Shown one piece after another: positions 3,001 to 7,597 of a DNA stretch of 64,000 nucleotides. The notes under the pieces were generated by a model. That model saw only the letters and a list, made by a program, of their open reading frames with translations. It ran no database searches and was not told the DNA's origin. The stretch's first letter is position 1. Each line of letters starts with the position of its first letter. The stretch is taken from positions 21,325 to 85,324 of the forward strand of contig CALVNA010000001.1 of assembly GCA_944349535.1 (NCBI GenBank), in the 5' to 3' direction. A program made the translations under genes and the position numbers. The DNA is from an uncultured Clostridia bacterium (GTDB lineage: Bacteria > Bacillota > Clostridia > Christensenellales > UBA1242).

Positions 3001-4942
3001 GGCCTTCAAGCCAGTAAACATTGTTGAAACTGCCTGTGTTCATAACAGCAATGCCATAGTCTGACACGCCAAGATTGAGAGTGAAAGAGATCGATCCTGA
3101 GTTGTTTGACGCAATTCCGCTTTCCCAATATCTGCCATTGCCAACTGAGAAATTTCCGTCAGCATTGCCCATGTTGAAGCTGTGGTTAAGTTGATTTGAA
3201 TTGACCGTTGCAAGTCCGCCTGTTTGACCGCCGCTAAGATTTCCAGCATTATAAGATCTTTCAATAATGCCATTGTTTGAAGCAACCAGTCCGCCAACAA
3301 ATGACGTTGCAGTTGTAACTGTTCCGCTATAAATGGATGTCAAATCACCAAGATTTGCGCAGAGCGAAATTGTGCCATCGTTTTGAGCCGCAATGCCGCC
3401 AAGGTTTGAAGATTGTCCACCAGCAAAATTGCTCTCTGCCAAAGGCTTGTTGATATCGCTGAAATTGTCGCAATTTGCAATTGTGCCGTTGTTGATTGCT
3501 GCTATTGCCGCCATATTGAATTGCGTGGTTGTGCTCGTGTTGAAAGAGCTCTCTCTAATACTTATATTTTCGACAGTTGCACCGGGAGCTATTTCGCAAA
3601 ACAATGCCACAGAAGTTGATGCCGTGTCGATGTTGACAAGAGATATCTTCACTCTTTGATCATCTCCGCTTTGCCCAGAATAAACTCCTGCAAAGCTTTG
3701 CACTCCTCCAGAAATGTAACCAACTGGGTCAAAATTTCCTGCCGTAGAGCCGTTTGTGTCAACACCTTTAAAGGTTATGTCGACTGTTTGAGAATAAAAA
3801 TCATTAAGATCAAATTGTATTGTCCTAAACTGGCTGGCAGAAAAACTTTTGCCAATCAATGCAAGCGCTTGTGGCGAAGTGATTGCAAAAGGCGAAGTTT
3901 GCGTGCCGTCGCCGGTCAGCCTTAAGGTCGAGTCCTGGCTGTTGAGCCAAATTTGCGGAGCCGATATGCTTGAATCTTCGCTATAGAAAAATGCTGGCAT
4001 TGATGATTGGGAGTTCAAATGCTCTGTCAAATAGCTGTTGCTGCTTAAAGTTGTTTGCCCATTAAGCTGCTCTTGTGAAACTGAAATTGCTGAGCTTGTG
4101 TCAGAGCTGCCAGAAATAACAGCTGAAGAATTTGTGTTGATAAAAGCACTATAGCTTATGATTCCATCGCTTTGATATGCGATTCCTCCGCCATTTGAAA
4201 TAATCCCACTATTGTATACTCCTCTAATTGTGCCTGTGTTTGAGCCTGCAATACCGCCGTTGTTTGAGCCTGAAACATCTCCGCTGTTATAGCTGTCAAG
4301 AATAGACCCTGCATTCAAGCCAACAATTCCACCTGCATTTGAACCGATAACTGTGCTGTCATTGAAACAATATTGAATAAGACCATTGTTGACACCAGCG
4401 ATTGAGCCGACAACACTTGCACCTTGCACTTGAGCACTTGAAATTGAAAGGCCAAAGATCTGCCCGCTTGAAGAAATGTTTGAGAACAGTCCTACATTAT
4501 TGTTTGCAGAATCAATGTAAAGCCCAGAAATCGTGTAGCCATTTCCTTCATAAGTGCCAGCAAAAGGAGTTTGCTCATTGCCAATAGAATCAAAATTCCC
4601 CGCATTGTCGCCGTTAAAATCAAAATTTGCAAGGCTTATGTCGTTTGTTTGAACAAAATGATTTGGGCTTGACAAAATAAAGTCACCATTATCATCTTTT
4701 TGATAAAGATAGTTTCGCACATTGTTTAAGTCTTGTGCGGTTGAGACCAAATATGGATTGCTTGCTGAGCCGTCACCATTTTTGAAAGGTTGCTCTTGAA
4801 CGGTCAAATTGCCGCCAACATTTGCGTTTTGAGTGAGCGATGAAGAAACCTTGACAAGCAAAAGAATGCCGCTTACAAAAAACAATAAGCTGACCAGTAT
4901 GCTGAGAATGGTGATTTTTAAGTTGAGTTTTTTAGTTTTCAT
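1..4942 (-). CDS. Giant secreted/cell-surface repeat protein, N-terminal >=1647 aa in window (GLUG-motif-type repeats); C-terminus lies beyond window start
   Basis: Absent from the ORF track because there is no in-window stop. My translation from ATG 4942 (MKTKKLNLKITILSILVSLLFFVSGILLLV..., N-terminal signal/anchor) stays open to nt 1. It contains many G-G-[FIL]-[VIA]-G..N.G.I repeats, e.g. VGGLVGSISGTTISGSY and IGGFIGLAQDSSISNCY. The listed minus-strand ORFs in this span (1570-1851, 2572-2784, 3040-3300) are all in another frame. Confidence 0.85.
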   Translation of the reverse strand, partial: MKTKKLNLKITILSILVSLLFFVSGILLLVKVSSSLTQNANVGGNLTVQEQPFKNGDGSASNPYLVSTAQDLNNVRNYLYQKDDNGDFILSSPNHFVQTNDISLANFDFNGDNAGNFDSIGNEQTPFAGTYEGNGYTISGLYIDSANNNVGLFSNISSSGQIFGLSISSAQVQGASVVGSIAGVNNGLIQYCFNDSTVIGSNAGGIVGLNAGSILDSYNSGDVSGSNNGGIAGSNTGTIRGVYNSGIISNGGGIAYQSDGIISYSAFINTNSSAVISGSSDTSSAISVSQEQLNGQTTLSSNSYLTEHLNSQSSMPAFFYSEDSSISAPQIWLNSQDSTLRLTGDGTQTSPFAITSPQALALIGKSFSASQFRTIQFDLNDFYSQTVDITFKGVDTNGSTAGNFDPVGYISGGVQSFAGVYSGQSGDDQRVKISLVNIDTASTSVALFCEIAPGATVENISIRESSFNTSTTTQFNMAAIAAINNGTIANCDNFSDINKPLAESNFAGGQSSNLGGIAAQNDGTISLCANLGDLTSIYSGTVTTATSFVGGLVASNNGIIERSYNAGNLSGGQTGGLATVNSNQLNHSFNMGNADGNFSVGNGRYWESGIASNNSGSISFTLNLGVSDYGIAVMNTGSFNNVYWLEGLSYQNVMNGSTTENLINVNQIAGMENINGQNFIDLFNSQGQYWVFDRAYFCEDGNNYQFAHLTSNYTEKMHPLAMHITQDGRYHMVENTAQFMGVGNYYNAIAYPGSGNFILLCDVNMSGQTYEAKEYLHGEFNGNGHTVSNVTLNTSGFNQLGIFNEISNGGYLHDLNLNNISITNTSNNDGGATGTVAGSVGTDAIIDNVHVNTTYVNGRRDTGCFVGNLTKEISSGNGYIQNCSVINGQATTRDGSDSGYPTGGFVGWTNGGIIRQCFTYNSSTSEDGPYLANAHLRVGGFVGIIESDSLIENCFAYGSVWVERVVWASGITTQDMDTAGGFVGWNNSSTSTVRNCYAHTTVTRRENWGYSQAATRGFGRGALTSWQNNYYVEGDYTESNGGGTQLSWDQMRQQSSFSGYDFSSIWQTSSSWGVPVPIGADQTLSSKGVAVVSTDAGSTVQLYSGGSLLTTTTATSGGAEFQNLDFGSYSARIFRNGQSLTSGSYETVEFSLSSDNPWQMVSSSRWFAGGDGTEDNPYIINSISQWQNLNNFAQAGEDTYFKLAKNLNFNRQEIVPISDFRGILDGDDHQIYNFVINSSAASVGIFESLTNAEISNLGISSFEITATSAGQVGALAAEASNSTILFVYADGGDISASGVIGGLVGSISGTTISGSYASVSISGQNSVFVGGFVGQATNSSNISQSYSGGNIVGLNNIGGFIGLAQDSSISNCYTTSAIVSSYNSAQDSSIGGFIGQSSGAAISNSFMHGSVKTSLANAGVFIGYNSSSSLQNNYAWNVNNLRLVQRGDQSQSISFLTTEQFLSASNFNGFDFISVWGMSKQSYPVLRNVPNASEISETVMGSGTENDPYLIFDRQTFSEIEEYYTQSVSTRSGEKIYFRLMQDIDLSGDDWQALFSSQAFTGVLDGNGNSITSVSLSATSNGIFQQAQNAIFKNIVLSNPRISSTAENVAILCGNATSTSFENITVQGGTVSSQSSTAAVVGTSSDC

Positions 4943-6589: not shown

Positions 6590-7597
6590 ATGTGTATAAT
6601 AAAAGCGATGGACGCAGCAAAATCAAGAAAAATGGAAAAAATTGGACGAATTCTGGACATTGTTCTCAATGTCGTTTTTGTGCCAATTCTTATTTTGGTT
6701 GCAATATTTTCGCTTTCAATCATGATCACAAGAGTTACAAATGGCGTGCCTTCAGTTTTTGGTTACACGCAAATACAAATCATCTCCGGTTCTATGCAAG
6801 ATGCCGGCTTTAAAATTGGCGAAACCTATTATGTCAAATCAATCAATCCTGCAGAATTGAAAGCCCGTGATGATGAAACTGGTCAGCGTGGAGATTATAT
6901 CGCGTTTTTCCAAGACTTTGACCCAAACTGCTCCTCTCCATCAATGGTCACCCCAACCAATCGCCCTGCTCAGAAAGCAAGCGATGCCAGAATTTTGTTC
7001 CACGAAATTGTTGCAATTGAAATTGATGCCAATGGCGAAAGATGGTTCACCACACAAGGCTCAAACAACGAAAACCCTGACAGTGTGAAAATTTATCAAA
7101 ACTATGTGATCGGAAGATGGGTTGAAGAGAGCAACTTTTGGACAGACCTTATTTCTTTTGTAACTTCGCCTATCGGTATAGTTTGTCTTTCAGTTGTGCC
7201 ATGCTCGCTTATCATTGCGGTTGACCTTTATCAGTTGATCGTTTTGAGTTATACCTATCAACAGCTCAAAAAGCAAAATGTTGTGATATCAACACCTCCG
7301 ACCGACGAGAAAACAGCAAACAAAAAGAATGACAATGGCGCAGAAGTCGCATCGGCAGAAAAAAAGACGGCAAATGAAGTTGGCTCGAGCCCGCAAAAAA
7401 CTTCAAAACCAACCATTCCGCCGCCACCGCCAAAACGCCCTGCCACCACTCAAGAAAAAACAAAGACAACAACAAAGTCTGACACTGAAAAGGTGGCAAA
7501 GATTAAAATTCCACCACCACCGCCAAAAAGAACAGAAGCAAGCGGCTCGGCAAAGATTAAAATACCGCCACCGCCACCACCAAAAAAGAACAGTTAA
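6590..7597 (+). CDS. sipW: Signal peptidase I, SipW (ER/archaeal) type, with ~100-aa C-terminal Pro/Lys-rich tail
   Basis: Motifs align to B. subtilis SipW: ISGSMQD (catalytic Ser), GDYIAFF, LFHEIV (His), TTQGSNNENPDS. TM segments flank the catalytic domain. The tail has three IPPPPP(P)K repeats. The true start may be ATG 6608 or 6632. Confidence 0.8.
   Translation: MCIIKAMDAAKSRKMEKIGRILDIVLNVVFVPILILVAIFSLSIMITRVTNGVPSVFGYTQIQIISGSMQDAGFKIGETYYVKSINPAELKARDDETGQRGDYIAFFQDFDPNCSSPSMVTPTNRPAQKASDARILFHEIVAIEIDANGERWFTTQGSNNENPDSVKIYQNYVIGRWVEESNFWTDLISFVTSPIGIVCLSVVPCSLIIAVDLYQLIVLSYTYQQLKKQNVVISTPPTDEKTANKKNDNGAEVASAEKKTANEVGSSPQKTSKPTIPPPPPKRPATTQEKTKTTTKSDTEKVAKIKIPPPPPKRTEASGSAKIKIPPPPPPKKNS

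Follow-up and report, generated by a model that had tools for sequence, protein, structure and literature searches.

Does a locus in the genome of an uncultured gut Clostridia bacterium encode a surface fibre, and does that fibre carry the giant repeat protein encoded beside it? The locus lies in a 64,000-nt stretch of DNA (the window, to whose positions all coordinates refer) and comprises four genes. A SipW-like signal peptidase I of 335 aa is encoded at 6590-7597 (+). Directly before it is the gene for a small secreted protein of 213 aa, termed B-type (5886-6527, +; called as an open reading frame, ORF), which we propose as the major fibre subunit. A second small protein of 207 aa, termed A-type and proposed as an adaptor, is encoded divergently (4932-5555, -; start as called on related contigs). 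It is followed by the gene for a giant surface protein with GLUG and Peptidase_M26_N repeats, of which the window holds the 5′ part, at least 1647 codons (1-4942, -; cut by the window edge). We consider the chances about even that these genes make up a surface fibre system, independent of sortase, that functions in the manner of TapA-SipW-TasA and SipW-BsaA and is built from a distinct subunit family. We are highly confident of a SipW-type peptidase with cognate secreted paralogs and moderately so of fibre formation, which is argued by analogy; for the weakest step, attachment of the giant to the fibre, our confidence is low to moderate.

A single scan of species-representative genomes yielded 19 species-level loci (designated by L-numbers), nearly all of them in metagenome-assembled genomes (MAGs) of uncultured Clostridia or Christensenellales and many from human-gut projects. 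Their neighbourhoods were surveyed by ORF calling and BLAST. The whole arrangement was found again in independent species-level genomes at 36-86% protein identity; it is therefore more than a chance association. The B-type gene adjoins the peptidase gene in every locus whose sequence permits the check, and a homolog of the GLUG giant (31-96% identity) lies beside a small A-type paralog in 12 of the 19 loci. In the window the A-type stop codon (4934-4932) lies past the ATG of the giant gene (4942-4940), giving an 11-nt overlap (4932-4942, -), as the earlier note on this DNA had read it. The same junction varies from a 1-nt gap to an overlap of ~17 nt and is tight in all 11 loci in which it is readable, which suggests translational coupling of the two genes. 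The earlier note had allowed that linkage to the giant gene might be found in no relative; since the linkage is conserved, this is not the case, and the pair of sipW-like gene and small gene is kept even more widely than the arm with the giant.

The peptidase was recognized by NCBIfam matches and by the motifs SGSM, FHEI and GSNNENPD. It matched the SipW model NF046067 with E 3.6e-14 (52.8 bits, below the cut-off of 190) and the archaeal-type signal peptidase I model TIGR02228 with E 1.8e-10 (40.9 bits, below the cut-off of 51.85). No Pfam match was obtained at E ≤1, and a PDB sequence search was empty. In 18 peptidase orthologs S66, S68, M69, H138, N160 and D164 are invariant. The SGSM-type Ser motif (S66, G67, S68, M69) is thus invariant or nearly so, the invariant H138 lies in FHEI, and the variant G[ST]NNxxxD of the GDNN box keeps G157, N160 and D164 throughout; an invariant Lys is absent from these orthologs. 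We take this Ser/His/Asp set to be that of the endoplasmic reticulum (ER)-type enzymes (Sec11/SipW), in which case the His of FHEI would presumably be the general base, by likeness to Sec11 and SipW. The earlier note had named an ER-type signal peptidase from the SGSM, H and GSNN..D motifs, and that assignment holds. The protein has N- and C-terminal transmembrane (TM) segments and a Pro-rich cytoplasmic tail, and its start is uncertain (ATG at 6590, 6608 or 6632). Because the scores fall below the curated cut-offs, the enzyme, judged from its sequence, is a divergent, active-looking SipW-type peptidase and not an ortholog of Bacillus SipW. The cytoplasmic tail (7330-7594, +) contains three Pro-rich KIKIPPPPPK(R)-like repeats. 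Tail length and sequence vary among orthologs; L003 has PPPPPK repeats and the others have none.

The two small secreted proteins announced by the earlier note were both recovered as ORFs, with one change of length. The A-type ORF reaches 5597 (221 aa; 4932-5597, -); on related contigs the gene is called from TTG 5555, 14 codons further in, and the protein is probably 207 aa long. A-type and B-type share 28% identity over 128 aa (pairwise E 2e-7) and, together with their homologs, can be aligned over their full length, ten columns being invariant (V32, Q38, I46, G52, E62, K87, F103, K115, Y182 and F202). The motif QS[LV][ST]I[QN]N.IT[VI], which had also been pointed out before, is present in both (QSVTINNTITI and QSLSIQNQITV). 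On these alignments A-type and B-type are true paralogs. A word-indexed search returned 130 relatives of B-type and 20 of A-type, none with a Pfam domain, and an exhaustive hidden Markov model (HMM) search with a joint A+B profile found 66 representatives at E ≤1e-3 among 1.84 billion proteins. Pfam and NCBIfam scans of the small proteins gave nothing meaningful, and TIGR04089 and TIGR04090 were not among the matches. Sequence and profile searches against the PDB gave spurious TM-helix matches only, and bridging through peripheral family members found named domains absent there too. The small-subunit family is narrow and lies outside current Pfam and NCBIfam domain models.

AlphaFold2 (AF2) models of both proteins are all-beta. 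The full-length B-type model has a pLDDT of 87, with residues 2-36 forming the signal helix. The mature A-type model has a pLDDT of 85.6 and a pTM of 0.85, and its first ten residues are poorly placed (pLDDT 52). In B-type the predicted signal peptide spans residues 1-34, with cleavage at VWA↓A, and is followed by an N-terminal strand (residues 35-52). From its conservation this strand, ATQQSVTINNTITITTAG, with I42-x-N44-x-I46 (5988-6041, +), is the predicted donor strand. A type IV pilin-like (class III) signal was considered and rejected on reading the sequences, which have no G↓F-type site before the hydrophobic segment. Among 40 family members, 15 gave a weak NCBIfam match (best E 0.008) to the N-terminal part of the Enterococcus EF2685/EF0750 family of sortase-dependent surface proteins, which hints that LPXTG proteins elsewhere have an N-terminus of similar signal-plus-strand build.

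The likeness of this locus to tapA-sipW-tasA of B. subtilis, whose TasA forms a donor-strand-exchange fibre (Bohning 2022, PMC9674648; Roske 2023, PMC10151520), is clearest in the signal peptides. The TasA sequence was checked against structure 8AUR, and a 27-member alignment of the TasA family was built for hhalign. Against this alignment only the signal peptides of the small-subunit family aligned (probability 31%, E 5e-4); the signal region of the peripheral relatives aligned with a probability of 79% (E 1.6e-5). The alignment sets VyA↓aLtQ of the family on TWA↓AFND of TasA; cleavage is therefore predicted after A34 in B-type and after the equivalent Ser in A-type. TIGR04088, the model of the SipW-cognate signal, gave weak matches in 6 of 40 members (best E 0.0069) and 16.6 bits in one peripheral member (cut-off 19). 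After the cleavage site the small-subunit family has xxQ where F-[NS]-D would be expected. The alignment with TasA and the weak matches to the dedicated model make SipW-type signals, as expected by the earlier note, plausible. Both systems have a SipW-type peptidase and a similar signal peptide and pair a major subunit with a minor protein; the N-terminus of TapA primes assembly by strand complementation, which is akin to the role that we propose for A-type or for the N-terminus of the giant. They differ in that TasA has AFND after the cleavage site where the small-subunit family has xxxQ, in that TasA lacks the Asn-Glu-Lys triad described below, and in that the small TapA (mature residues 44-253) contrasts with the giant repeat protein.

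The sipW-bsaABC cluster of C. perfringens offers a second comparison. It too belongs to Clostridia and has a dedicated SipW beside beta-rich secreted paralogs of ~20-23 kDa. SipW is required there for secretion and polymerization of BsaA, and the polymers are extremely stable (Obana 2020, PMC7395162). For BsaA, donor-strand exchange by residues 28-38 has been proposed, and mutants support the model (Kivimaki 2025 preprint, PMC11580942). The same preprint proposes that an isopeptide bond formed between subunits, from N35 to K74 and catalysed by E56, locks the strand, with V33 and F37 buried in the acceptor. It also reports that the strand is disordered or poorly placed in the monomer model and that the oligomers are membrane-anchored (PMC11580942). 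The present family likewise has an N-terminal strand that is disordered in monomer models and a hydrophobic-x-Asn-x-hydrophobic motif: I42-x-N44-x-I46 of B-type resembles V33-x-N35-x-F37, the comparison being made with published BsaA residues. A conserved Asn, Glu and Lys also occur at similar mature positions (N44, E62 and K87 at +10, +28 and +53; N35, E56 and K74 of BsaA at +8, +29 and +47). In both systems the subunits have no LPXTG, and the cluster also encodes a larger secreted protein. However, the family in our loci has no Pfam or NCBIfam match, and its likeness to BsaA is drawn from published features. The present operon is split into two divergent arms, with neither a two-component system nor a sortase gene adjacent. 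The partner here is a GLUG-repeat protein of ~1900 aa, apparently coupled in translation to a specialized paralog, whereas BsaC is a 70-kDa vWA protein.

The three candidate lock residues are widely conserved in the family: among 249 members, N44 is kept in 217, E62 in 193 and K87 in 231. They differ between paralog classes in an orderly way. B-type, next to the peptidase, has N/E/K at residues 44/62/87, as does A-type in the clade of the window, next to the giant gene. In a second clade, A-type (again next to the giant gene) has T/D/K, and a further paralog found in that clade only, C-type, encoded upstream of the B-type gene, has N/Y/K (S for N in one genome). The C-type paralogs are ~216-230 aa long (L001:9324-9974, L008:9280-9972, L009:9331-9978, L011:9301-9969; all +). 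The donor Asn and the acceptor Glu have thus been lost independently, in different paralogs of the same genomes; this agrees with a fixed subunit order, and with an intermolecular bond more than with one inside the molecule. The co-occurrence of Tyr62 in C-type and Thr44 in A-type may mark an A-to-C interface. This loss pattern probably goes back to one evolutionary event, hence it is only suggestive of an intermolecular bond and of subunit order. In L013, L018 and L019, Glu or Asp at position 62 is kept solely in the paralog adjacent to the peptidase gene.

From these parallels we propose the following mechanism. Sequence and context show a dedicated ER-type signal peptidase encoded together with its cognate substrates. 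The peptidase would cleave after VWA in B-type, after VYS in A-type and probably after VSS in the giant, in each case three residues before the invariant Gln38; this placement is predicted because of the TasA alignment and the -3/-1 rule. The freed N-terminal strand would insert into the beta-sandwich of the next subunit by donor-strand exchange, by analogy with TasA and BsaA, and B-type subunits would form the shaft. A lock may then form between Asn44 of the donated strand and Lys87 of the acceptor, catalysed by Glu62, as the conservation of these residues and the BsaA precedent suggest. More speculatively, A-type would be made ~1:1 with the giant and would join it to the fibre as an adaptor, and the giant, having no acceptor domain, would stand at the distal end. 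The base of the fibre may be held in the membrane by a subunit with an uncleaved signal anchor; this too is speculative and fits the membrane anchoring of BsaA.

The proposed structure also resembles the chaperone-usher type 1 pili (FimA shaft, FimH tip adhesin), in which Ig-like (immunoglobulin-like) subunits are completed by the N-terminal strand of a neighbour, as proposed here, and which have specialized adaptor subunits and a tip adhesin. Self-complemented FimA was the best Foldseek match by probability: with the B-type model such pilins came first (probability 0.97-0.99, TM ~0.3), followed by AP2 mu2 and Spy0128. Type 1 pili differ in that a Gram-negative periplasmic pathway assembles them and uses both chaperone and usher; the locus encodes neither, the signal peptidase being its sole dedicated factor. 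The TM score of ~0.3 is also low.

The giant protein, put at more than 1600 aa by the earlier note, is at least 1647 aa long in the window and 1923 aa in a full-length copy with 96% identity (L003). It scores above the Pfam cut-offs for Glug (43.3 bits; cut-off 20.5) and Peptidase_M26_N (49 bits; cut-off 27.7). Its sole hydrophobic segment is N-terminal (residues 10-30), within a signal-anchor predicted by N-terminal alignment (residues 1-34; 4841-4942, -), and is followed by the small-residue site VSS↓SLTQ. The predicted cleavage site and Gln38 are spaced in the giant as they are in the small subunits. LPXTG, a C-terminal TM segment and HExxH are all absent from the full-length giants. Because there is neither LPXTG nor a C-terminal TM segment, the N-terminal hydrophobic segment is the only possible tether. 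The giant resembles streptococcal surface proteins of the ZmpA/ZmpB/ZmpC type in its GLUG motifs and Peptidase_M26_N repeat region, and differs from them in having no M26 catalytic domain, HExxH or LPXTG; the NCBIfam ZmpA model gave 24 bits against a cut-off of 3000. A protease function was considered and ruled out, since HExxH and the M26 catalytic domain are absent. The giant is best viewed as a repeat or beta-solenoid-like passenger, not a protease. A short motif is conserved at the C-termini of the giants (TYEWTLV, VEWILVN, TYEWVLVA, YFNWILVA and VTWTYVE in L003, L001, L008, L012 and L017, respectively).

Wherever the giant gene is complete, the next gene downstream encodes a GDSL/SGNH hydrolase of ~430 aa (55-65% identity). 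Such genes are found at L003:2025-3311 (-) and L001:1346-2638 and in L008, L009, L010, L011, L012 and L017; their products have an N-terminal TM segment and are better conserved than the giant or the subunits. The corresponding position lies beyond the left edge of the window. The hydrolase might modify the fibre, the giant or the cell wall.

The chromosomal site of the arm that carries the giant gene seems fixed, and the arm itself a variable cassette. L005 and L006 keep the subunit-peptidase pair; the other arm, left of the B-type gene, differs. In L005 a 1483-aa protein with Flg_new repeats replaces the giant, and L006 has neither an A-type nor a giant gene and thus no cargo arm. The right flank of these two loci is shared with window positions 7667-13766 (YitT, DAG kinase, a secreted 240-aa protein, a glycosyltransferase, SDR and DegV). 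Tandem small paralogs, three or four of them, occur in three Christensenellales-like loci that have no adjacent large protein; four such paralogs followed by the peptidase gene are present at L013:215-3165, L018:7656-10606 and L019:7743-10606 (all +).

A small subunit and a large protein are fused in an 869-aa leucine-rich repeat (LRR) protein from a Clostridia MAG (P0182, MEG1499749.1; L022:975-3584). Its N-terminal part is an entire small-subunit domain, matched by the profile at E 7e-12 and containing the A-type motif SDDGQAK, and BspA-type LRRs follow; the contig is too short to show neighbouring peptidase or subunit genes. P0194 is a similar fragment. When the N-termini of 11 sequences (small subunits, giants, 195-aa proteins and an LRR protein) were aligned, Q38 was the sole invariant residue. 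A tag HMM of 23 positions, covering the cleavage site and strand only, was significant on the 194- and 198-aa proteins of L005 and L004 (E 3.7e-5 and 1.1e-4), of which the full family profile covers only the first ~47 residues. The same signal-plus-strand N-terminus, e.g. VWAARNQSITLNNTIKIE, occurs on other proteins of related loci, and there the family profile matches the N-terminus only. Among these are pairs of tagged ~195-aa proteins with no Pfam match (L005:4221-4805 and 4807-5397, -; L004:2034-2630 and 2637-3221, -) and a tagged 734-aa BspA-type LRR protein (L015:2800-5004, -).

A further reading of the fibre, which we find rather unlikely, is that the signal anchor and N-terminal strand together form a portable plug-in tag. 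Peptidase-cleaved carriers of the tag (candidates are the GLUG giant, BspA-type LRR proteins and 195-aa proteins) would then be strand-joined to a fibre of small Ig-like subunits. If the fibre grows from a membrane-held base, a giant that brings only a strand would therefore be at the tip, and the loss of Asn44 in one paralog class and of Glu62 in another class of the same genomes would mark subunit order. Such a tag, if true, would provide sortase- and usher-independent display of interchangeable large adhesins in Gram-positive gut bacteria.

Several results weigh against a TasA-like fibre that carries the giant. The earlier note had called the small proteins TasA/BsaA-like, and for TasA this failed as a statement of homology. 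PF12389 (Peptidase_M73) was unmatched at E ≤10 in 27 family members, and also in 10 peripheral relatives. When the mature domains were compared with the 27 TasA-family proteins, hhalign gave a probability of 0.1%. The TasA structures 8AUR and 5OF1 were not among the top 50 Foldseek PDB matches of either AF2 model, and all Foldseek PDB matches were weak (TM ≤0.3; FimA, AP2 mu2 and Spy0128, with an elongated beta-sandwich). Structure prediction, which the earlier note had named as a check on the small proteins, yielded confident all-beta models, with TasA absent from the top 50 matches. These findings indicate that the mature domains are not demonstrably TasA homologs, and that the resemblance appears to be limited to the signal peptides. 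With respect to the giant, the tag HMM was not significant (E 0.17-2.4; best shuffled control 0.053), and strand donation by the giant therefore stays hypothetical. Gene adjacency by itself is no proof of a physical link, and six of the 19 loci show no large neighbour, L006, L013, L014, L018 and L019 having no adjacent large protein and L016 being too short.

Of the other explanations, the one that survives best, somewhat unlikely in our judgement, holds that the fibre and the GLUG giant are separate products that are co-located and co-regulated, with the giant secreted or self-anchored and off the fibre. The always-conserved core of B-type and peptidase agrees with it, as do the five loci without an adjacent large protein and the non-significant similarity of the giant N-terminus to the tag. 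BsaC sets a precedent, being encoded in the bsa operon and yet apparently secreted independently of the BsaA oligomer (PMC11580942). However, the A-type/giant junction is kept in 11 of 11 readable loci at 36-86% identity and the giants have no wall anchor, both of which speak against separate products. The existence of a subunit-domain/LRR fusion, and of the tag on other proteins of these loci, also speaks against them.

An explanation to which we give little credence is that the small proteins do not polymerize at all. They would be monomeric, Ig-like surface or membrane-anchored accessories, such as chaperones or secretion helpers for large adhesins, which the SipW-like enzyme releases or matures. 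The strong conservation of a strand with alternating hydrophobic residues and a central Asn, and the near-invariance of E62 and K87, are difficult to reconcile with such a role, although there is no demonstrable homology to fibre formers and the structural matches are weak. The BsaA paralog BsaB, which is described as forming dimers only (PMC11580942), also favours such a role. Against this, several specialized paralogs per operon are present, as in heteropolymeric pili, and the logic of the system is identical to that of the SipW-BsaA and SipW-TasA fibres demonstrated by experiment. Finally, a classical Gram-positive system, in which the pilin-like small proteins carry intramolecular isopeptide bonds and the peptidase homolog is a SipA/LepA-like pilus chaperone, is highly improbable, for although Foldseek gave weak matches to the major pilin Spy0128 and one member a weak GramPos_pilinD1 match (E 0.0016), the large ORFs inspected around the loci included no sortase gene, the giants have no LPXTG, the subunit C-termini have a conserved IDQT-type ending that is not a sorting signal, the catalytic Ser and His of the peptidase are invariant, and the independent loss of N44 and E62 across paralog classes misfits an intramolecular triad.

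We thus keep the SipW-dependent, sortase-independent fibre as the preferred reading. The claim of the earlier note that the arrangement is undescribed stands in part. SipW and BsaA/TasA-like paralogs beside signal-peptidase and surface-filament genes (LPxTG, SpaA and fibronectin-domain), possibly forming heteropolymers, were already reported in a preprint (PMC11580942); that report covers neither this family nor an anchorless GLUG giant. New elements are a subunit family that current domain models miss, the variable cargo arm, the fusion of a subunit to LRRs, the candidate portable N-terminal tag, and the conserved pairing of the family with a GLUG giant that has no anchor, a pairing that apparently includes translational coupling. 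SipW-dependent donor-strand-exchange fibres (TasA, BsaA and archaeal Abp pili) are emerging as a widespread route to biofilm matrix and are so far known as homopolymeric scaffolds. The present locus points to use of this logic by uncultured human-gut Clostridia too, with subunits that are invisible to domain databases. Coupling of the fibre to very large anchorless adhesin-like proteins, which the locus also suggests as a possibility, would if true explain how such giants are retained and would represent a new adhesin-display organelle in abundant uncultured gut bacteria.

Promoters and terminators were called by consensus scans only. In the divergent intergenic region (5598-5885), a promoter-like sequence, TTGACT-18-TATAAT, with 11 of 12 sigma-70-like matches (5671-5700, -), precedes the A-type and giant genes. 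Between the B-type and peptidase genes is an AU-rich 12-bp hairpin with a U-run (6540-6568, +). It is weak (-9.8 kcal/mol, z -1.69; 12 of 200 shuffles fold equally well) and is possibly a leaky terminator that raises the subunit-to-peptidase ratio. The scan also placed a bidirectional terminator-like hairpin at 7618-7642, closing the subunit-peptidase operon.

One locus of the set, L017 (CALUZF010000001.1), is labelled Candidatus Gastranaerophilales. Its gene order and ORF coordinates are those of L011, from a Clostridia MAG, and the two show similar identities to the window proteins; the label may be a binning or labelling error.

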